A stretch of DNA of 64,000 nt, taken from Klebsiella phage ZCKP1. The DNA is taken from sequence record MH252123.1, one strand, 5' to 3'. Made by a program: the position numbers and the translations under genes. A model generated the notes under the pieces. The model was not told the DNA's origin, did no database searches, and saw only the letters and a list, made by a program, of their open reading frames with translations. Every line of letters starts with the position of its first letter. Position 1 is the first letter of the stretch. Shown here piece by piece: positions 4,581 to 45,045 of the stretch.

Positions 4581-5234
4581 CTATACCAGACTTTGAAGGT
4601 ATTTGTCAAGGGCTTCTTGATCACCTTGACAAACATAGCAACGGAAGTCTTGAGCCGAAGGTTGTTTATTTTCATCCCAGTCCCAATAAACATTACCCTT
4701 ATAACGTGAACCAGGAAACTCAAAAGAGGCTGTATGTGTAATGTATCCTGGGCCACCAGTGAAATCACAGAATGAGAATTGGGGGTATGCCGCCTTTACT
4801 GCCTCAATAAACCAAGCTTTACGATCTAAGGCTTCATTGATGCTATACGCATGTCTCTCCATTTCTTCCCAAGTCTTCCAGACACTTCTCTCATCAGGAG
4901 AAAAGACAAGCCATTCTGGAAGGTAGAGAGTGTCATAGTAATCATCATATTCGATCTCGGAGGCGCACGAAGCTGACTCCTCCAGTTTTGAGTAATCAAA
5001 AGCAGAATATACCCACCAACCATCTTCCAGTAAGGCTTTGATAGGGACGAAGCCTTTATCAGCATATTGATCGAATTGTTTGACACGGTGGCTTGTGCAG
5101 TCTTCAAACTCACATTCTAAACGATATGCACCTTTTCGACGAGCCTCAAGACCGTGTGTACTGAAAATAACAACACTTCCTTCACCATCATTACGATCTA
5201 CTTGATAAGCAACCACTGGTTTTGAATTTGACAT
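4581..5234 (-). CDS. hypothetical protein (217 aa)
   Basis: ORF in the same operon; no motif recognised. Confidence 0.5.
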   Translation of the reverse strand: MSNSKPVVAYQVDRNDGEGSVVIFSTHGLEARRKGAYRLECEFEDCTSHRVKQFDQYADKGFVPIKALLEDGWWVYSAFDYSKLEESASCASEIEYDDYYDTLYLPEWLVFSPDERSVWKTWEEMERHAYSINEALDRKAWFIEAVKAAYPQFSFCDFTGGPGYITHTASFEFPGSRYKGNVYWDWDENKQPSAQDFRCYVCQGDQEALDKYLQSLV

Positions 5235-5917
5235 TATTTCTCCTTATCTAGAAGATTGTTAGACAAAAACACTGCACGAGCAAAACCACGTGCGGTTAGT
5301 GATCTAAGTTGTTTTGTTTTTGCACTAGCTCCACCTAAGCTTTTCCAACCCCAGAAGCAGCCTATATGATCTACTGGTTTCTTCACTGGTTGAACAAAAC
5401 CATTGCCGTGCCAAATACAAGTTTTCTTTGTATACCCATCACGGGTAGGCATTTTAGGATGAAAGCTTCCTTCCTCTTCAAACAAATACCCACCATACTC
5501 ATAAGGATCAAAGTAAAAATCGGGTTTACGCCATAAGGTTGAAAGTTTACCTACTGGGTTCTCAATCATCCAAGGAACATTATATTTGTTACCCAAAGCT
5601 TCCACTACACGAATATTAGCTAAAGCTTCATCTAGTTCCTCTGTGCTACGTTCGTGTTTGCTACCACTACCTGCTAACATAGTGCAAGGTGGAAATCCAA
5701 AAATAATATCGGGTTTAGGTATCCCATGATCTTCAGGGTTGAATGTAGAATCTATCCAGGCATTCACATAGGTTATGTTTGGGTGCTCCATCCTAACCTC
5801 GTATTTACCGTGATCCCCTTCATCAGCGTTTACACAAAAACACTTGTGACCTGCTTCGGCATAACGTAACACCATGATCCCAGATCCGTCAAACATAGAC
5901 AAAACTGTTTTACTCAT
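5234..5917 (-). CDS. C5-cytosine methyltransferase-like protein (motifs I FDGSG, IV PPC, VI ENP) lacking an obvious target-recognition domain
   Basis: LSMFDGSG, GFPPCTMLAGSG and MIENPVG; start moved to internal ATG at 5917 (ATGA overlap with upstream stop, RBS GGAGGGG). Confidence 0.55.
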   Translation of the reverse strand: MSKTVLSMFDGSGIMVLRYAEAGHKCFCVNADEGDHGKYEVRMEHPNITYVNAWIDSTFNPEDHGIPKPDIIFGFPPCTMLAGSGSKHERSTEELDEALANIRVVEALGNKYNVPWMIENPVGKLSTLWRKPDFYFDPYEYGGYLFEEEGSFHPKMPTRDGYTKKTCIWHGNGFVQPVKKPVDHIGCFWGWKSLGGASAKTKQLRSLTARGFARAVFLSNNLLDKEK

Positions 5918-6323: not shown

Positions 6324-7248
6324 AAGGCTTTACTACATGTTGATTAGCTTTAAAACGTTCAACATAGTCGTTTTCGCCCATGTTTTCATATAGCTTAGTA
6401 ACAACATAAAAGTTTTCCCAAGCATATTCCCTAAACCAACCACTAGTGATGGATGTGCAGACTTTAGATAAAGCCATTATAAAACTTTGCTTAGGGGTTG
6501 GACCTCCGATCTCTCCACCGAAAGGAATTTGTGAACGTTCCAAAGCCAAAACACACGCTTCTTCATAAACACCTAACAGGCGCACATGTTTTGGTTGAGC
6601 AAAAAACTTTTCTTTGCTGGTCATAACTTCACTTCCATCTTTCATATAAGATTTATATGCCGGAGCATCCATTACCGCGATTGCTTCATGGATAGAATCA
6701 TGATCATAAACATACGGAACCTCATCACCTTTAAAAAAGTCTTTACTTTTTACGTTTAAGTTCGGATGAGAGTAAGTGTATGTTTCTTTCTCACGCAACT
6801 CATAAATACTCTTAAGATTTTCTGGGATCTTTGCGCCCAGTGACCGCATGAAATGAATATCTTTCATAGTTTTAAAGAAGTGAGGACTATCCTTTTTAAA
6901 ACGATGACTCATTTTAAGAAGGTAGAGCACATCTAAAGGAGCAACAACATGTCCAGCGTAAGTTCGACGAACATCATCAGAATCTTCACAGTAACTAATC
7001 AAAGCTTCTGTGCTATCTCCTTGAGAAGCAATATCGTATTCCAAATGTGCACCAGCTATCATTTTGACATGGCCTTTGTTTCCTTTACGTTCTACAAGTT
7101 CAACAAACTCATCTTGAGAGAACATTTTTGATAATTCTTCCCACTCTTGTTCTGTACACAGGTAATCTAAATCTACACAAGGGCGATACAAGTCTTTTCC
7201 CATGTCCATAGCATGAATTTGTAATGCACGGCTACCAATTAACACCAT
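6307..7248 (-). CDS. nucleotidyltransferase-fold (pol-beta superfamily) protein
   Basis: N-terminal LIGSRALQIHAMDMGKDLYRPCVDLDYL matches the G[SG]-x(9-13)-DxD minimal NTase motif; RBS gaggagaaatatt ATG. Confidence 0.45.
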   Translation of the reverse strand: MVLIGSRALQIHAMDMGKDLYRPCVDLDYLCTEQEWEELSKMFSQDEFVELVERKGNKGHVKMIAGAHLEYDIASQGDSTEALISYCEDSDDVRRTYAGHVVAPLDVLYLLKMSHRFKKDSPHFFKTMKDIHFMRSLGAKIPENLKSIYELREKETYTYSHPNLNVKSKDFFKGDEVPYVYDHDSIHEAIAVMDAPAYKSYMKDGSEVMTSKEKFFAQPKHVRLLGVYEEACVLALERSQIPFGGEIGGPTPKQSFIMALSKVCTSITSGWFREYAWENFYVVTKLYENMGENDYVERFKANQHVVKPFEGGY

Positions 7249-12328: not shown

Positions 12329-12838
12329 TTAAACAAAATAAAATGGTTGAGAGAGGCCCAAACGATTCTTTGGGTCGTATACATACCAAGCGTATGCTGT
12401 CTTATCTGTTCCACCTGCAACAAACGAAGGCCGTTCTGAAAGGACTATAAGGTTTGTTGGTGGATTCTTTTGATGGAACTCTCGTCGTTTCTTTGACTCC
12501 AAGAAGCCCAACCGAAGAAGATAAATACAAACATCCGCCTCTTTTAAGCTCTTTTCCAAGAACTCCATTGCTAACTTAAATGGAGGATTTGTGATTATAA
12601 TGTCGGGACGATTTTCCCATTCATGACTAAAATAATCTTTACCTTCTTCAAGTTCGCAATATTCTGAACCTTCAGGAAAATGGCGATAAATCGCTTCAGC
12701 TTCACCTCTGCAAGGTTCTGCAAAAACCCAACCTTCTTCCTTTAGATTTTTGAAATCTATAACACTAAACAAACTATTGATTGCTTTTTGCGGTGTCGGA
12801 TAATAATCGCTCGTTGGGCGATCATAATCTAATGCCAT
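12329..12838 (-). CDS. small N6-adenine (or N4-C) DNA methyltransferase-like protein (gamma-type motif order)
   Basis: DYYPTP, then FAEPCRGEA (FxGxG-like), then DIIITNPPF. Confidence 0.55.
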   Translation of the reverse strand: MALDYDRPTSDYYPTPQKAINSLFSVIDFKNLKEEGWVFAEPCRGEAEAIYRHFPEGSEYCELEEGKDYFSHEWENRPDIIITNPPFKLAMEFLEKSLKEADVCIYLLRLGFLESKKRREFHQKNPPTNLIVLSERPSFVAGGTDKTAYAWYVYDPKNRLGLSQPFYFV

Positions 12839-18277: not shown

Positions 18278-18487
18278 TTATTCCTCCTTAATTATTTCAA
18301 ACTTGGCAACACCATTTACAATAATATGACCACAAGACATAACTCCTAACCAAGGATCGCCGTTTTTCTTCAGGCGTTTACCGAATACATCACAAAAACC
18401 ATTCTTCATTTCGGAGGCTTCATAAGAAGCCCCTTTGTCAAAAACGTCTTTGAATGTGTCGATTATACCAACACATCTCAAAATCAT
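18278..18487 (-). CDS. hypothetical protein (69 aa)
   Basis: ORF. Confidence 0.4.
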   Translation of the reverse strand: MILRCVGIIDTFKDVFDKGASYEASEMKNGFCDVFGKRLKKNGDPWLGVMSCGHIIVNGVAKFEIIKEE

Positions 18488-19572
18488 TAGAAGTCAAGCT
18501 CCTCATCATCAGAGAGATCTTTGTTAGCTGAATTCAATTTGTAATTAGTTAACTGAATCTCTTGGGCTGCTGACTGAATCAAATCAGGATTCAACCATTT
18601 TTCCATCCAAGCTAAAGGACTATGTTTAGGTGCTTTAAACTTGGCTTTCATTTTCAATCGACGATAAATAGGAGCAGCATTGAAATAAACCCACTGTTTA
18701 GACAATTCGGCGTTAAGACCTACAATAAAACGACCTTCACTAAACAGGTAGTCACACCACTGTTCCTCTTGTTCAACAACAGTGTCGAGGATCAAAGTCA
18801 ACTCTTCAATATTGTCTTCGTAAATTTTACGCCAAATTGGGTCATGCATCAATGCATCAATTACAGCATAATCCATCTTAACATGCAAGATTTCATCTAG
18901 CATAATTTTCTGGATCAGTTTACAAGCCCCAACAAACAGTTGTTGTTCTGCCATAGCAAAAGTAGCAGAGAAGGAAGATATAAACTGAATACCTTCTAAT
19001 CCAATCAGGGCTACCATCCCTTTAAGAATCAGCAATCGAAGTTCATCGTTAGCTTCAATCAATCCTAGAGCATACTTATGACCAGCTTCTTCCAACTGAC
19101 CCATGATATCAGCAATGATACCCATACGATTGAAAATTTTATCATTAATCATAATCTGATTGATGACTTCAATTGGATCTGGAGTACATTGACGGATTAT
19201 TTCAGAATACGTTAACGCATGGAGAACTTCCATTTCACTCTGCTTCATCATCATAGCACAGGCTTCATTGTTACTCAAGAATGGAGAGAACAAAGTGATG
19301 ATTGATTTTGCAAGAGAATCATTTTCCCATTGGAACGATAAGTTTTTAATCATAACATCATAGTTGTTTTTAGAACAAGCTACGAAATCTTTACGTGTCT
19401 GATCCAGATTAACTTCGTTTTCATCCCAATCTTGTGCTTTTTGAAGTTTGTAGAGTTTGTGCATTTCTGGATAAGTTACGTTAACAGAATCAAAGATCCC
19501 TAATTGCTCCCCCAAAAATACTGGATATTTTCCTGTTTTGTAAACTTCATTGTGTAAATTAATTGCTGCCAT
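18487..19572 (-). CDS. nrdB: ribonucleotide reductase class I beta subunit
   Basis: 361 aa; di-iron/tyrosyl-radical R2-like sequence; lies downstream of nrdA. Confidence 0.85.
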   Translation of the reverse strand: MAAINLHNEVYKTGKYPVFLGEQLGIFDSVNVTYPEMHKLYKLQKAQDWDENEVNLDQTRKDFVACSKNNYDVMIKNLSFQWENDSLAKSIITLFSPFLSNNEACAMMMKQSEMEVLHALTYSEIIRQCTPDPIEVINQIMINDKIFNRMGIIADIMGQLEEAGHKYALGLIEANDELRLLILKGMVALIGLEGIQFISSFSATFAMAEQQLFVGACKLIQKIMLDEILHVKMDYAVIDALMHDPIWRKIYEDNIEELTLILDTVVEQEEQWCDYLFSEGRFIVGLNAELSKQWVYFNAAPIYRRLKMKAKFKAPKHSPLAWMEKWLNPDLIQSAAQEIQLTNYKLNSANKDLSDDEELDF

Positions 19573-34632: not shown

Positions 34633-34989
34633 TTAATAGTGCACACGAATCATTTTAATACCATAACGCAGCATGGATTCTTTTGCAAGCATGAATTTAT
34701 CCCCAGCGGCGGGATTAGAAGTATGCACGAAAATGGTAGGTGAACCAAAGCAAGGTTTACCAAACGCCAGAAGTTCTTCCAGGCACAGGAAAACATCATA
34801 CCCATCTTGGTCAGAATCTTCACCCAAATCGTTGTCAAAATGCCACTCATCTACAAAACGATAACCCTTCTGCACCTCATTCATGTAGCGAGAGGCAAGA
34901 AGTTCCTGTGATGTTTTAAACCAGATTGCATCTGGACAACCATAATCTTTTGGATCACGTAAATCGTCAAGCCAAATAATAGTACCCAT
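34633..34989 (-). CDS. hypothetical protein (118 aa)
   Basis: ORF. Confidence 0.45.
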   Translation of the reverse strand: MGTIIWLDDLRDPKDYGCPDAIWFKTSQELLASRYMNEVQKGYRFVDEWHFDNDLGEDSDQDGYDVFLCLEELLAFGKPCFGSPTIFVHTSNPAAGDKFMLAKESMLRYGIKMIRVHY

Positions 34990-36480: not shown

Positions 36481-36673
36481 TTACTACCTCCATACGATCT
36501 AAAAAGTCATTCACAAATCTCCAGTAACGTTGACCTGTTCTAAGATCTTCATAGATAACTACAGGATCAAACACTTTAGATATTCCGGCAGGTTTTGGAA
36601 ATTCCACTACCGTATATAAACCACCTTTTGCTACACAAGAATAGGTTACGCCTGTAATTGGATAGTTGCTCAT
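36434..36673 (-). CDS. hypothetical protein (79 aa)
   Basis: ORF. Confidence 0.4.
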   Translation of the reverse strand: MSNYPITGVTYSCVAKGGLYTVVEFPKPAGISKVFDPVVIYEDLRTGQRYWRFVNDFLDRMEVVSGENTEEVIKAKERY

Positions 36674-36864
36674 TTCTTTACGTACTCCATGATTGGGGTA
36701 TGGTCGCCAGTAAGCGTAACACGGCTGTAGGACACATCTTGTGTCTTCAGTGTATCAATCCACTCTAAGAAGTGTTCTTTCGCTTCTGTGTAGTTCTGTG
36801 TGCCTTTAACAACGTGTATACCATCTAGAGTTACACGGAATACCATTTGAATAACGTCTTTCAT
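36670..36864 (-). CDS. hypothetical protein (64 aa)
   Basis: ORF. Confidence 0.4.
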   Translation of the reverse strand: MKDVIQMVFRVTLDGIHVVKGTQNYTEAKEHFLEWIDTLKTQDVSYSRVTLTGDHTPIMEYVKK

Positions 36865-36960
36865 TTCTTACCTCCTTTGTTGTCAAAATAACTTACCAGA
36901 ACATCATGAACCACACACATGGCAAAAATCAGAACAATTGTTGTCAGGACTGGATTCTCA

Positions 36961-37284
36961 CTAATTAGTGCTATCATCTTTAACCACCTCCAATTGCCTT
37001 TCGAGTTTGACTTTGTTTGAGAACTGATAATGACACAACTTACATTGCATGTCAACAATCTGATCGTGATTTAACCCTACAATTTTAACTTCCTTTGCAC
37101 CATCCCATTCCAAATACTCAAAGCCATCCAAATGATTACTCTTGTCCAACAAGAATGCTATCTGCTGCCATTCAATCTGAATGTCATTTAAATGATATGC
37201 TGCACAGAAGATATCCTCGTAGTAAAAGACGATCATTGTCATTGCTTCGTCCAGCACAACTACCTCTTGTCTTGTAAATCTCAT
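36961..37284 (-). CDS. hypothetical protein (107 aa), first gene of the leftward early unit
   Basis: RBS taggaggctaga ATG. Confidence 0.5.
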   Translation of the reverse strand: MRFTRQEVVVLDEAMTMIVFYYEDIFCAAYHLNDIQIEWQQIAFLLDKSNHLDGFEYLEWDGAKEVKIVGLNHDQIVDMQCKLCHYQFSNKVKLERQLEVVKDDSTN

Positions 37285-37538
37285 TCTAGCCTCCTAAACG
37301 CGTCTCTGACGCACTTTTTATATATAAGATGATAAATCACCTTACCTAGTAAGTGAACTTGCTCTACGAGCCTCTTATGAAGCTTATGTTATAGGCTATA
37401 CTATTGCTACCTGTTTAAGCAAGGTTTTTGCACACAGAAAATAATTTTAATAAAACTCTTGACTTTTGTGTTCGAAGTATGCTACCCTAGAAATCTATTA
37501 ACGAGCGCAGCGAGTTAAGGTTTTAGGTTGTTGATGTA

Positions 37539-37736
37539 GTACTCTGTACTCAAGTACTGTACTCCGTACTAGATTAATAATTATTAAATATTAATAATAA
37601 ATAATTATTAGATCTAACAAACAGGTACAGTGTATCAGAACTGGTACGTACAGATCAACTTCTATCAATCAAAAATAAAATAATAAATTATTATAAATAA
37701 TACTTGATCTATAGATCAGTATGAAGTACAGTACGG
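37539..37736. repeat. GTACT direct repeats (x5), perfect palindromes TTAATAATTATTAA, GTACGTAC and TGATCTATAGATCA, and inverted arms GTACTGTACT / AGTACAGTAC in divergent intergenic region
   Basis: read directly from the sequence; AT-rich core flanked by GTAC arrays. Confidence 0.7.
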
Positions 37737-37764
37737 AACATCTTAACAAGAATGGAGGTGTGCA

Positions 37765-37950
37765 ATGATTAGTGAGAATCCGTGCAAATGGCATCATGTG
37801 CCTATTAAAGATTGTATGTCTTGTAATCCACGTTCTATTTATAACATTGCATCTTATGATGATGACAATGTGTTAGACGATGATGAAGGATGGGAGGATT
37901 TAGATTGGACTGGTTATGAAACCAAAAAGGATAAAATTATTCCTAGTTGA
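37765..37950 (+). CDS. hypothetical Cys-containing acidic protein (61 aa)
   Basis: RBS aatggaggtgtgca ATG. Confidence 0.45.
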   Translation: MISENPCKWHHVPIKDCMSCNPRSIYNIASYDDDNVLDDDEGWEDLDWTGYETKKDKIIPS

Positions 37951-37987
37951 CTTAAGATATCCTTCGTGCTAAACTAGAAGTGAGGAG

Positions 37988-38239
37988 ATGCCGATCACTC
38001 CCCATTTGGGGTTCGAAGGATATATGCAAAATAGCTTTTATTTTAGGTGCCGTGCTTGTAATAGGCATTTGACAAACCACTCCAGACGTGATAAAAATGG
38101 AGTCATCAAGGAATCAGACCTCTGTTCTATTTGCACAGGTTTGGCTTTTGATGATAGTCCCGAAAGGGTTTATCAGCATCAATGTATAACAGACGTTCTC
38201 GTGTCAAACTTGGTAGAGGACGAACAACTAACAGACTAG
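37988..38239 (+). CDS. small zinc-finger protein (CRACNRH...CSICTG)
   Basis: RBS GTGAGGAG ATG. Confidence 0.45.
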   Translation: MPITPHLGFEGYMQNSFYFRCRACNRHLTNHSRRDKNGVIKESDLCSICTGLAFDDSPERVYQHQCITDVLVSNLVEDEQLTD

Positions 38240-38248
38240 GAGGAACAA

Positions 38249-38496
38249 TGTCTCTATTAGAAAAACACGTGTTTGAAGATGGTAACGGCAATGCAGTTTT
38301 TCTTTTCCATCCAGAAAAATACACATCTGAAAACAATGGTACAACTTCTATTGTAATCACTAAAGATGTTAAAGTTATTGATTTCTTGGCTCTGATGCGA
38401 GAGATGGATCTTGAAATTAACACTTTTAACGCAGAAGCTTTGGTTGTTGCTCTTCTGGAAAAGAAAGATAGTGAAGAAGTAGCAGAATATGCTTAA
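38249..38496 (+). CDS. hypothetical protein (82 aa)
   Basis: RBS ctaggaggaaca ATG. Confidence 0.45.
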
Positions 38497-38503
38497 ATAA
38501 CTA

Positions 38504-38533
38504 TTGACAAACGTATCCTTCATATGTTAGGAT
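38504..38533 (+). promoter_or_regulatory. sigma70 promoter (ctaTTGACAa-18-TAGGAT) ahead of the first tRNA block
   Basis: shares the extended ctaTTGACAa -35 context with the promoters at 39091, 40772 and 46741. Confidence 0.45.
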
Positions 38534-38742
38534 ACGTTCATCAAGTGTGGTAACAGGGTCGTTGACTTTTGTTAAGAGGGGCTTGCACTGCGGTAGTGTT
38601 AGAGACTACTTCTTCAGAGGTTAGCTACCAAAGAGGAAAAGGAACAGTCTCGGCTCAAGAACTTTTACGCTGAAAGTTGGGCTTGGTCTTAGAGAATGTA
38701 GCGGTTCTCTACAATCGTCAGCGTCTCTGTTACCACATTTAT

Positions 38743-38817
38743 GGCCCTGTAGCTCAATGGGAGAGCTGTCGGCTCATAACCGATAGGTAGCTGGATCGAA
38801 ACCAGCCAGGGCCACCA
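38743..38817 (+). tRNA. tRNA-Met/Ile2 (anticodon CAT), CCA encoded
   Basis: cloverleaf folded by eye: acceptor GGCCCTG/CAGGGCC, anticodon loop CTCATAA, T-loop GGATCGAAACC. Confidence 0.75.
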
Positions 38818-38819
38818 AC

Positions 38820-38894
38820 GTCTTTATGGTGTAATGGATAGCACAGGAGTCTTCTAAACTCTTAGTCAAGGTTCGATTCCTTGTAAAGACACCA
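38820..38894 (+). tRNA. tRNA-Arg (anticodon TCT), CCA encoded
   Basis: acceptor GTCTTTA/TAAAGAC, loop CTTCTAA, T-arm CAAGGTTCGATTCCTTG. Confidence 0.7.
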
Positions 38895-39090
38895 GAACAT
38901 TTTAACATGAATTAGCTCAAGTGATTTGAACACACTACTGATCATGGTGGTAGAGAATGAGGCAAGTATGTCAGACATTATAAACAAAGGCCACGGTTAT
39001 ATTAGAAGACATAAATGCTCGAAGAGCACCGTTCGTGGAGAACGGGGGTTGGTGGAGTCACCATTCATGGTAAAATGTTTTAAAAAACTA

Positions 39091-39993: not shown

Positions 39994-40140
39994 AGCTTAC
40001 CGAACGTAGGGCTAGTCACCCAACGGGATACTCGTCACTGTCCCACTCAAAGAAAAGAAGAACCAAACTGTTAACGTTAAGAAAAAATTACCCTTAACTA
40101 ATCCATTTTATCACAAATGGATTTCATATGTCAATATGTT

Positions 40141-40160
40141 TGCGCGTTGCACAGCGCGCA
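40141..40160 (+). promoter_or_regulatory. palindromic operator-like site TGCGCG-ttgcacag-CGCGCA immediately upstream of higA RBS
   Basis: perfect 6-bp inverted repeat 25 nt before the start codon. Confidence 0.45.
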
Positions 40161-40184
40161 AAATCAGAGTATTTAGGAGGTTAC

Positions 40185-40526
40185 ATGGTCACATTGCACA
40201 AACCTATGCACCCCGGCGAGTTTATCCGCGAAGTATATTTAGAGCCGTTAGAGCTTCAAATAGGAACGTTTGCAGAAAAGCTTGGTGTTGATACATCAAC
40301 CGTTAGCCGGTTAGTAAACCAAAAAGCTGACCTTTCTTATGAAATGGCATTACGCCTATCAAAAGCCTTAGGGCGTTCTGCTGACTCTTGGATGAAAATG
40401 CAAATAGCATATGGTTTATATCGTGCTCAAGATAAAGTAAATCTTGAAGAAGTTGAGGTGGTTTACTGCCCACGGAACTTGGATGCTCCTGAAAAACAGG
40501 TCCATGAATTTTATGAAAATATCTAA
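40185..40526 (+). CDS. higA: HigA-family antitoxin-like XRE helix-turn-helix protein (no cognate toxin ORF found)
   Basis: MHPGEFIREVYLEPL...TFAEKLGVDTSTVSRLVNQKADLSYEMALRLSKALGRSADSWMKMQ matches the HigA/VapI antidote family; RBS AGGAGG-5nt-ATG. Confidence 0.7.
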   Translation: MVTLHKPMHPGEFIREVYLEPLELQIGTFAEKLGVDTSTVSRLVNQKADLSYEMALRLSKALGRSADSWMKMQIAYGLYRAQDKVNLEEVEVVYCPRNLDAPEKQVHEFYENI

Positions 40527-42969: not shown

Positions 42970-45045
42970 GTGGCAAAGAAAAAGGCAGCAGGTAGTTTAG
43001 CTGGAGTAGATATTGAAGTAAAGGCTCAACCAGGTAAACAGACTCTTGCAATGGATTTAATGCCAGAAGTTATGATTTATGGTGGTGCCGCTGGATGTGT
43101 TTCTGCTGAAACGGAATATCTTACAAAAGATGGTTGGAAACAGATTAGTGAATATTCGGGAGAGGATATTTACCAATACAACCCTAAGAATAAGCGTTTA
43201 GAATTGGTAACACCTTACTTTGTAGAATACGATTTAAATGGAGATAATCTATACAGAATAACAAATGGTGTAGGATTGTTCCAAGAACTTAGTATGGAAC
43301 ACCGTTTTGTATTCTATAAGAAAAAGAAATCAAAGAAACATTTCGAGATTCTTGTAGGAGATCTTATTGCATTACAGCAAATAGGAAAACCCCTGCAAGG
43401 TTATGTAGAAAATCCATTCGGTAAACGTGTTCCTTTTAACATACCTGGTAAAAAGAGCACTTACTTAAAAATACACGAGGTTATTTCAACAGATGATAAG
43501 AAATATTGTTTTGAGACTCCAAGCAGCTATATTGTCTTTAGACGTGGCGATCACTGCTTCGTTACTGGGAATAGCGGCAAGTCTCGTCTGCTATTGCTGA
43601 AAGCTTTAAAATACGCCTACAAAGACCCTTTGTTTGGTGGAATACTTTTCCGTAAGAACACCACTGCTCACCGTAAACCAGGTGGTCTGTTTACAGAAGC
43701 AAAACGTTTGTATCTTCCTTTACAACCGCACGTAAAAGAAAGTACAATGGATATCATTTTTGAAGCCACTGGTGGTGGAACCCTCAAATTTGACCATTTG
43801 GAAAATGATAACGTAACAGCAGAAACAAACCATCAGGGTACACAGTATTCAATGGTAGGTTTTGATGAGTTAACCCACTTCACGCAATATGAAATGCTCT
43901 ATCTTCTGGGACGTATGCGTTCAGAATCAGAAACAAGCTTCATGTTGTGCACATGTAACCCCGATGCAGATAGTTGGGTTTTGAATTGGGTATTACCTTA
44001 TCTCGATGAGGGCGGTTATCCTAGAGAAGATATGTGTGGTAAACAAAAATATTTCATCATTGTTAACGATGAACCTGTTTTTGCTGACACACCTGAAGAA
44101 CTGAAAGAAAAATATCCAGAAAACTGTTTCATGGAAAACCCTAATACAGGGGAGACAGTTGTTATTGAACCACAAACTTTCGTATTTATCGGTGGGACAA
44201 TATTTGATAACCCAGAATTGATTAGGCTTAACCCTAATTATTTAGCACAGCTTAAATCACAAACAGCAATCAAAAGAGCACAACTCTTGGACGGCTGTTG
44301 GTTTGCACGTATACAGAAAGAGTCTTTCTTCCAACGTGAATGGTTGCATAAGATATCTTATAAAGATGTTCCTAATAATCTTAAACTAATGCGAGCATGG
44401 GATAAAGCTGTTTCAGTTCCTACAGAAACTTATCGTTATCCAGACTATACAACATCTGTCAAAATGGGTAAAGACCAAGATGGTAATATCTACATCTTTG
44501 GTGACTATGATTATGATGCTGTGGATGAGAAAAGTAAAATTTTCGGAAGGTTTCGAAGATTACCTGGGGAAAGGGATAACCTGATTCTAAATCAATGTAA
44601 GATTGATGGACCAGAAGTTACAGTAGTGCTTCCTAAAGACCCATCTGGTGCTGGGACAATAGAATATACAGAATCTGCAAAGAAACTTATTCTAGAGGGT
44701 TTTGTTGTTAAACCAGATGCTATGCCAGGTAACAAGAAAAAGCTTCAGCGTTTTATGCCTTTTAGTAGTGCGTGTCAAAACGGTTTTGTTTATATTGTTG
44801 AAGATTCTTTCCCTAATGTGGAAACTCTAACCCACTTTTATAAAGAATTGGAATCTTTCAATGGTGAAAGATCTACAGCCACTATTAAAGATGACATTCC
44901 CGATGCTGCTGCTTCTTGTTTTAATACTCTGTCAAAAGAGAATACTTTCAAGGCAGTAGCTATCCCTACAACAACAAATGCTCCTACAGGATACAGTAGA
45001 ATGAACAGCGGATTTCACCAACCGTATAGTGTCCGTAAAAGATAA
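42970..45045 (+). CDS. terL: terminase large subunit, Walker A interrupted by mini-intein
   Basis: GTG start after GGAGGG; 691 aa; position before portal; after intein removal the P-loop reads YGGAAG-SGKS. Confidence 0.8.
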   Translation: MAKKKAAGSLAGVDIEVKAQPGKQTLAMDLMPEVMIYGGAAGCVSAETEYLTKDGWKQISEYSGEDIYQYNPKNKRLELVTPYFVEYDLNGDNLYRITNGVGLFQELSMEHRFVFYKKKKSKKHFEILVGDLIALQQIGKPLQGYVENPFGKRVPFNIPGKKSTYLKIHEVISTDDKKYCFETPSSYIVFRRGDHCFVTGNSGKSRLLLLKALKYAYKDPLFGGILFRKNTTAHRKPGGLFTEAKRLYLPLQPHVKESTMDIIFEATGGGTLKFDHLENDNVTAETNHQGTQYSMVGFDELTHFTQYEMLYLLGRMRSESETSFMLCTCNPDADSWVLNWVLPYLDEGGYPREDMCGKQKYFIIVNDEPVFADTPEELKEKYPENCFMENPNTGETVVIEPQTFVFIGGTIFDNPELIRLNPNYLAQLKSQTAIKRAQLLDGCWFARIQKESFFQREWLHKISYKDVPNNLKLMRAWDKAVSVPTETYRYPDYTTSVKMGKDQDGNIYIFGDYDYDAVDEKSKIFGRFRRLPGERDNLILNQCKIDGPEVTVVLPKDPSGAGTIEYTESAKKLILEGFVVKPDAMPGNKKKLQRFMPFSSACQNGFVYIVEDSFPNVETLTHFYKELESFNGERSTATIKDDIPDAAASCFNTLSKENTFKAVAIPTTTNAPTGYSRMNSGFHQPYSVRKR
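43096..43572 (+). mobile_element. mini-intein (159 aa, no endonuclease domain) in terL P-loop
   Basis: starts Cys (CVSAETEYLTKDGW, block A-like), internal SMEH (block B-like), ends ...HCFVTGN followed by Ser. Confidence 0.65.

Follow-up and report, generated by a model that had tools for sequence, protein, structure and literature searches.

A cluster of the avoided tetranucleotide GTAC between predicted promoters at a divergent gene junction of Klebsiella phage ZCKP1: a candidate early-transcription control region

In bacteriophages T7 (promoters A1 to A3) and T5, the first genes are driven by several close promoters of the host type, and an AT-rich block is found directly upstream of the -35 element. 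The locus analyzed here is a 480-bp intergenic region (positions 37,285 to 37,764) of Klebsiella phage ZCKP1 (record MH252123.1), and the window is the whole stretch of 64,000 nucleotides in which it lies. Like the early regions of T7 and T5, the locus seems to present several close host-type promoters to the first genes (two rightward promoters, P1 and P2, followed by others at 37947, 38504 and 39091), with an AT-rich block directly upstream of the -35 element and a layout conserved across related genera. It differs from them in two respects: P1 is followed by a conserved structured leader present in three copies per genome, and between the two promoters lies an array, confined to one clade, of GTAC, a tetranucleotide that is avoided and apparently modified. 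We propose that the region, where the leftward and rightward arms of the genome meet, is a composite control region for early transcription in which the array modulates rightward transcription, and we regard the chances of this explanation as evenly balanced.

The array is composed of five GTACT units with spacings of 7, 8, 5 and 7 nt (Table 1). All the motifs listed in the earlier note were recovered at their positions, and each of the long ones is unique in the window: the AT-only palindrome TTAATAATTATTAA at 37574-37587, GTACGTAC at 37644, TGATCTATAGATCA at 37705-37718 and two arms 161 bp apart, GTACTGTACT at 37554 and, as its exact reverse complement, AGTACAGTAC at 37725. The GATC sites were likewise found at 37611, 37653, 37706 and 37714. 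GTAC is the most depleted of the 256 tetramers in the window (45 observed for 179.9 expected from a Markov model), and ten of these 45 copies are grouped within 37539-37734, with a Poisson probability of 6e-17 against the window background; when the dinucleotide content of the region itself is taken as background, the probability is still about 0.0005. Five of the ten are the forward GTACT units and five are found in inverse-oriented contexts (GGTACAG, GGTACGTACAG and AGTACAGTACGG); two copies overlap the -10 element of P2. In the full related genome of phage Schickermooser (NC_048196), of which 150 kb were analyzed, this is the densest GTAC cluster, the word being present there 147 times for 457 expected. 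Perfect palindromes of at least 14 bp are at chance level in the window as a whole (6 for 5.5 expected), and two of the six are in these 480 bp (P ~0.0015). The four GATC in 121 bp represent a mild enrichment (P ~0.002) of a word that is not depleted in the window; both GTAC and GATC are thus locally enriched words of the type targeted by methyltransferases. Because of the inverted repeats, a single strand of the region folds better than its shuffles (z = -2.9 as RNA and -4.1 as DNA). The statistics of the GTAC cluster, the palindromes and the GATC sites agree with the earlier claim that the repeats are non-random, and the statistical anomaly of the GTAC cluster is real.

The divergence of leftward and rightward genes at this place, also noticed earlier, was confirmed, and three putative sigma-70 promoters are predicted between them: PL, directed leftward, and the tandem P1 and P2, directed rightward. 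In all three, the -35 and -10 hexamers are separated by 16-18 bp, and P1, an AT block and P2 occur in this order in phages phiWec188, phi92, FKP3 and Tr1 and in IMG/VR contigs. The palindrome TGATCTATAGATCA spans the -35 element and the spacer of P2, and the arm AGTACAGTAC spans its -10 element. P2 is located about 25 nt ahead of the ribosome-binding site of the first rightward gene, the Shine-Dalgarno sequence and the ATG coming next. In the proposed mechanism, the host sigma-70 RNA polymerase would start leftward at PL and rightward at P1 and P2, AT block 2 would serve as an UP-like element for P2, the right palindrome and the right inverted arm would be the core of P2, and the array together with AT block 1 would be an insertion in the leader. 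The array would then modulate rightward early transcription, either via a protein binding GTAC(T) or via the modification state of the sites overlapping the P2 -10 element. This role is proposed because the avoided and apparently modified GTAC is concentrated there and two of its copies overlap that -10 element. The earlier note had suggested a binding array for a regulator of both divergent promoters. Divergent promoters are indeed predicted here, but an operator array serving the two of them fits poorly, since the distance from PL to the array is about 180 bp and the array occupies positions about 45-75 nt past the inferred start of P1. The right arm and the GATC palindrome can be understood simply as the P2 core.

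The phage of the window is a Phapecoctavirus (Stephanstirmvirinae), one of the phAPEC8-like myoviruses of E. coli, with a genome of about 150 kb. Over positions 36900-38300 it shares 99.2% identity with ESCO13, and a sequence search of this stretch matched 66 phage records. In other lineages, the orthologous locus was found via the 107-aa protein of the first leftward gene, which is 33-58% identical there (42-44% in phi92-like phages), and it was read in phiWec188, phi92, Klebsiella phage FKP3, Citrobacter phage Tr1 and IMG/VR contigs. All these relatives have in common P1 (TGCTACCCTA), a GAGCG-N-AGCGAG box, GATCTAAC-type words, one AT-rich block abutting the -35 element and P2, and this conservation holds where the flanking proteins are only 33-44% identical. 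A P2-like TTGAC[TC]-N17/18-TA[CG]A[GC]T is found at the same place in phi92, phiWec188, FKP3 and L029, the PL core GGTGATTTATCAT is recognizable in phiWec188 and Tr1 and more loosely in phi92, and GATCTAACAGAC and GATCAAC-type words recur in phi92, Tr1 and phiWec188. The array of five GTACT was detected in none of the relatives read. In a MAFFT alignment it is an insertion relative to the four sister lineages phiWec188, Tr1, phi92 and FKP3 and, on this comparison of sequences, the phAPEC8 clade alone carries the array and AT block 1, inserted in the predicted leader between P1 and P2. A homology between the array and the ATACT words of phi92 was rejected, as MAFFT aligns those words with the mid-segment that follows AT block 1. 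Within the clade, eight sequences (the two suspect assemblies KKP3954 and BI-EHEC, described below, being excluded) and two metagenome contigs were compared. The array is identical in seven of the eight and in both contigs, and the exception, phAPEC8 itself, carries two substitutions in the array, one of them inside a GTAC. A scan of metagenomes gave these two identical copies and no added diversity, and no phAPEC8-clade contig carrying this leader was found in IMG/VR.

These comparisons bear directly on a neutral origin, in which the array and AT block 1 would have arisen by slippage or duplication in a permissive leader and would have been kept only through the youth of the clade. Variants of this type are found nearby: the copy number of a AAGGTTTT repeat, changes in the length of the AT block and a deletion of about 67 bp. 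AT block 1 duplicates AT block 2 at 72% identity and a spacing of 103 bp, the sister lineages keep every other element without the array, and all the clade genomes are at least 95% identical. Against a neutral origin, ten copies of the word most strongly removed by the clade are accumulated here, which would be costly if the depletion reflects restriction; the irregular unit spacings do not resemble simple slippage; the five forward copies are followed by five inverse-context GTAC including an exact 10-bp inverted repeat; and, apart from the phAPEC8 change, no array site is lost in the reliable assemblies and metagenome contigs. Neutral expansion is rated as unlikely. The deletion was observed in nieznany, a plaque-forming phage, and covers about 37630-37696 of the window, i.e. 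GTACGTAC, GATCAAC and the left part of AT block 2; this part is therefore dispensable. In UP17, AT block 1 is flanked by the direct repeat TAGATCTAA. In phiWec188 and phiWec179 (L003 and L004, 2573-2785), an extra leftward gene of 70 aa with its own promoter-like sequence is inserted between PL and P1, so the region tolerates gene-sized insertions. A mobile element shared with the hosts was also considered and rejected, as no match to 37495-37765 was found in 5,426 E. coli genomes or in PLSDB plasmids.

In the alignment, KKP3954 and BI-EHEC appear mutated at 7 and 9 of the ten clustered GTAC sites, respectively. An evolutionary loss of the array in these phages was rejected because GTAC is hypervariable throughout both genomes, indels fall in genes, the control is clean and BI-EHEC is a nanopore-only assembly. 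Compared with the window, about 60% of all GTAC sites differ in the two records (OR067838 and OL505078), e.g. those at 7154, 48513 and 63217. The substitution rate reaches 13-14% at GTAC positions versus 1.8-2.2% overall, and nearly all the changes are G>A or C>T. Indels of 1-2 bp are located exactly at GTAC (e.g. GTAC to GTATAC) inside genes, where the reading frame would therefore be shifted, and one of them coincides with a split gene of KKP3954. In an unbiased scan of tetramers, GTAC is an extreme outlier in KKP3954 (28/43 sites, p = 1.6e-20) and in BI-EHEC (27/44, p = 2e-21). In Schickermooser, a control of equal divergence, GTAC is no outlier: among the 42 sites for which a homologue could be read, 7 differ, and most of these seven differences are common to all three records and therefore look like real polymorphisms. 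When miscalls are systematic and restricted to a single short palindrome, they are known to signal a base modification left out of the basecalling model. From the GTAC-specific miscalls we infer that the virion DNA of the phAPEC8 clade is apparently modified at GTAC, probably on cytosine. The KKP3954 and BI-EHEC records probably carry systematic errors, for which nanopore basecalling at a modified motif is the most likely source. BI-EHEC was assembled from nanopore reads only, using Guppy 4.0.11, Flye and Medaka (PMC8686590). The observed/expected ratio of GTAC is as low as 0.25-0.32 only in the array-bearing clade; it is 0.56 in phiWec188 and about 0.8 in phi92, FKP3 and Tr1.

The phage carries two or three small methyltransferase-like genes (Table 1). 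None of their proteins has a Pfam or PDB sequence match, and the annotation is based on PHROGs and on the reading of motifs. The C5-cytosine-methyltransferase-like protein, which is 100% identical in BI-EHEC, is a candidate GTAC modifier; its family, with members in 1,486 phage records (Klebsiella siphoviruses and rV5-like phages among them), is too widespread to be tied to GTAC by its distribution. The second-densest GTAC cluster of Schickermooser (6 in 250 bp, NC_048196 34,566-34,764) is located in a dTDP-glucose dehydratase (rmlB-like) gene, and the homologous window gene (18487-19572) holds only one GTAC. This difference suggests that the Schickermooser gene is a recently exchanged allele not yet purged of the word.

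Short palindromic target words of modification are concentrated many-fold in the GATC clusters that serve as switches in E. coli oriC, in the phage P1 pac site and upstream of Mu mom (Dam and OxyR). The present cluster resembles them in this concentration and in its position, GATC occurring in the -35 element and spacer of P2 and GTAC in its -10 element. It differs from them in that the word is GTAC, which is depleted throughout the genome (GATC is not), and in that the modification, the enzyme and any reader protein are all putative. We know of no analogue of SeqA or OxyR for the GTAC cluster. By extension of this likeness, the cluster could be an epigenetic timing device, by which fully modified injected DNA and under-modified new DNA would be told apart, switching rightward early transcription or licensing a transcription-primed origin. 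The clade would modify GTAC with its own C5-methyltransferase-like enzyme, probably on cytosine, and purge the word elsewhere, and the ten sites in the P1-P2 leader and across the P2 -10 element would act as the sensor. We consider this possibility as quite unlikely. A pac recognition site made of clustered methylatable words, as in phage P1, is highly improbable. Such a site would account for GTAC and GATC clusters flanking an AT-rich core, and the structural and terminase module is on the same arm. However, the gene for the terminase large subunit (42970-45045) begins about 5 kb away, beyond the tRNA cluster and the lysis genes, instead of beside the region, and no ends of a packaging series were found here: no record has its termini in the repeats, and the end of the nieznany record falls inside the 37765 gene. 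The array is, in addition, clade-specific.

P1 and its leader box form a module with three paralogous copies per genome across Stephanstirmvirinae, the two others being located at about 128,629 (-) and 15,088 (-) of NC_048196. The module consists of TTGAC-N-TG[CG]TACCCTA, a small hairpin and a second hairpin with the invariant loop GAGCG-N-AGCGA, and covariation is found in the second stem. Among 16 distinct copies, 77.5% of the cells of the leader stem are paired for 63.6% in shuffles (0/500), double-sided changes amount to 15 for 6.8 in shuffles, and the covariation score is 0.50 for 0.14-0.23 in slid controls. At least two of the three stand at the head of units of several genes and one is antisense to its neighbouring genes. 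As far as the P1 leader is concerned, the module recalls lambda nut and HK022 put, since a conserved hairpin with an invariant loop follows the predicted start within about 25 nt and is repeated behind several promoters. Its sequence is not similar to boxA, boxB or put and, unlike these systems, one copy is antisense to the neighbouring genes. The module may be a nut/put-like or an mRNA-stabilizing element. A search of 36500-39000 against Rfam with E values up to 1 gave tRNAs and no other RNA family.

As part of the P1 transcript, the array might itself act as RNA. Five GUACU words separated by 0-3 nt would be bound, in a TRAP-like manner, by an RNA-binding protein, or would form a long-range helix with the downstream AGUACAGUAC that controls read-through or translation of the first gene. 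In the P1 transcript the five copies all read in one direction and fall at about +45 to +75, the predicted fold (the RNA fold with the z-score given above) closes a 10-bp helix between 37554-37563 and 37725-37734, and the transcript opens with the hairpin in which covariation was found. Against this reading, Rfam gave no match, the array is invariant and so yields no covariation signal, the partner of the helix is also the P2 -10 element, which explains it independently, and no candidate RNA-binding protein is at hand. Such an element is judged very unlikely.

The earlier note had seen an origin-like layout in the AT-rich core, the iterated repeats and the symmetric flanks. This was not borne out: the region contains no DnaA cluster, no iterons and no recognizable adjacent initiator gene, and the array is missing from sister lineages in which the remainder of the region is kept. 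One DnaA box (TTATNCACA) with one mismatch is present in the region (37426), and such matches number 96 in the window for 89 expected from shuffles. AT-rich 13-mers of the GATCTnTTnTTTT type are not found beside boxes, and the AT blocks have no repeated 13-mer; GATCTAACAAACA was considered as an oriC 13-mer and rejected as outside the consensus. By-eye comparison of the region with LexA and IHF sites gave none that fits. Iterons, defined as at least three direct repeats of about 17-22 bp, are absent from 37200-37900, where the longest repeat families have two copies, and no initiator gene was recognized among the ten flanking proteins. Origins of lambda and of iteron plasmids also have short repeats beside an AT-rich stretch, but the repeats here are of 5 bp and irregularly spaced, not of 17-22 bp, no initiator gene is adjacent, and another part of the genome holds an array that is far closer to iterons. 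Noncoding DNA reaches its highest A+T content in the genome outside the window, at 136,670-137,240 of NC_048196, where four palindromic repeats of 19-23 bp (AAATGAGAAnnnTTCTCATTT, Fur-box-like) are found at exactly 29-bp spacing, with direct repeats of 72 and 34 nt; similar words are found at positions 75-92 and 254-271 of the record. From its sequence, that stretch appears a stronger candidate for an iteron-type origin or operator than the GTACT region.

An origin activated by transcription is another matter. In the T7 primary origin and in T4 oriF and oriG, a promoter is followed by an AT-rich element, and this layout matches the region: P1 is followed within about 100 nt by almost pure A+T, and neither iterons nor DnaA boxes are present. 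The P1 transcript would invade the AT block (37571-37615 and/or 37669-37703) as unwinding element, its RNA would prime the leading strand, and the GTAC and GATC sites would add a methylation-dependent control. In support of this view, a predicted promoter lies upstream of an almost pure A+T stretch that comes 75-120 nt later, this arrangement is conserved across genera, the cumulative GC skew has a local minimum at the locus and the single strand folds unusually well. The likeness to T7 and T4 has its bounds, as the AT block is also in the UP position of P2 and the promoters of the locus are of the host sigma-70 type and not dependent on a phage polymerase or MotA. The skew, moreover, mirrors gene orientation in the full genome, with its global minimum at about 130 kb, the other divergent point; as it follows transcription, the local minimum is uninformative. 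An AT block abuts the P2 -35 element in every genus, and an UP element accounts for it without replication. Only the phAPEC8 clade has AT block 1 and the array, nieznany is viable without part of the region, the replication genes are 40-90 kb distant, and the AT-richest noncoding stretch, with its four regular palindromic repeats, lies elsewhere. An origin of this type is rated as unlikely, and the region does not look like a replication start.

Several observations weigh against control of early transcription by the array. Irregular spacings of 5-8 bp are unusual for an operator array on double-stranded DNA. PL, P1 and P2 are promoters predicted from sequence and conservation and not mapped starts; the -10 elements of P1 (TACCCT) and P2 (TACAGT) are weak matches, and a generic promoter scan flagged neither. 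The modification of GTAC is deduced from assembly errors, a nanopore-only origin being documented for BI-EHEC alone of the two suspect assemblies, and the link of the candidate modifier gene to GTAC is itself conjectural. In Pfam and PHROGs, the ten flanking proteins show no recognizable initiator or DNA-binding domain. Finally, the clade is young and the invariance of the array therefore carries little weight: no change at ten array sites compared with 17% polymorphism at other GTAC sites gives an estimated P of about 0.16, which is not significant. A literature search yielded no transcriptome data for this phage group and nothing on the present region, an origin, promoters or GTAC modification in it.

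Table 1. Positions of the predicted elements and genes (window coordinates unless a record is given).
Feature	Position	Strand	Basis or remark
C5-cytosine-methyltransferase-like gene, 227 aa, motifs FDGSG, FPPC, ENP	5234..5917	-	PHROG 757, E 7e-85
Methyltransferase-like gene, NPPF-type	12329-12838	-	PHROG match
Third methyltransferase-like gene	NC_048196 100304-101098
First gene, leftward arm	36961..37284	-	107 aa, PHROG 14390 of no assigned function
Short GC hairpin GCGTCTCTGACGC, 5' leader of leftward mRNA, just upstream of Shine-Dalgarno	37300..37312	-	sequence
Leftward promoter PL, TTCACT-N17-TATCAT	37329..37357	-	predicted (promoter scan)
Rightward promoter P1, TTGACT, 18-nt spacer, extended -10 TGcTACCCT	37459..37488	+	predicted
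P1 leader hairpin, stem TTAAC/GTTAA, invariant 11-nt loop GAGCGCAGCGA	37498..37518	+	covariation
Slippage-prone AAGGTTTT repeat	37517..37530		copy number differs in anhysbys and UP17
Array of five GTACT	37539..37570	+	copies at 37539, 37546, 37554, 37559, 37566
AT block 1 (AGATTAATAA...TTAGATCT), contains palindrome TTAATAATTATTAA	37571..37615		partial duplicate of AT block 2
Mid-segment: GATCTAACAAAC, GGTACAG, GGTACGTACAG, GATCAAC; three GTAC	37611..37660		ancestral, words recur in relatives
AT block 2, directly upstream of P2 -35, UP-element position	37669..37703		AT-rich block there in every genus examined
Rightward promoter P2, TTGATC-N17-TACAGT	37704..37732	+	predicted; read from sequence
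First gene, rightward arm	37765..37950	+	61 aa, Cys/His motif and acidic tail, PHROG 26411

The leftward arm carries nucleotide-metabolism genes and the rightward arm the tRNA and structural genes: after the 61-aa gene come small genes, ten tRNA genes, the lysis genes, the terminase and the structural module. In Schickermooser, two divergent switch points (about 55 kb, the locus studied, and about 130 kb) and two convergent points were found. The hairpin at 37300..37312 was flagged as terminator-like on the plus strand; from its position, it is more probably a hairpin of the leftward 5' untranslated region. Near-consensus extended -10 sigma-70 promoters (TTGAC-N-TGnTAnnnT) at 37947, 38504, 39091 and 41626 (+) form a battery over the initial 4 kb of the rightward arm, interspersed among the small genes and the tRNA cluster. 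All ten flanking proteins belong to PHROGs without function, and none has a Pfam domain except one of 118 aa (34633-34989, -), which matches cREC_REC, the cyclic-phosphate processing receiver domain (E = 1.6e-13). Its gene adjoins genes annotated in relatives as metallophosphatase and RNA ligase, and the three may form an RNA-repair module. An open reading frame of 132 aa (40128-40526, +) is located between tRNA-Thr and tRNA-Gly; relatives have an HNH endonuclease gene in the same tRNA cluster at another position, and our guess is that this frame encodes a homing endonuclease.

Phapecoctaviruses are widely isolated as therapeutic candidates against pathogenic E. coli, and their regulation is essentially unmapped. 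The locus described here offers a concrete predicted map of the early transcription starts for the two genome arms. As far as the searchable literature goes, the proposal that GTAC is modified appears to be new for this phage group. If it is true, GTAC is a site of systematic errors and frameshifts in several of the nanopore-only genomes deposited, and the modification would have a bearing on the limits of host range set by restriction. It would also provide a possible new case of a cluster of methylation sites used as a regulatory switch. Should the timing device exist, it would be for GTAC what the clusters at oriC, P1 pac and Mu mom are for GATC.

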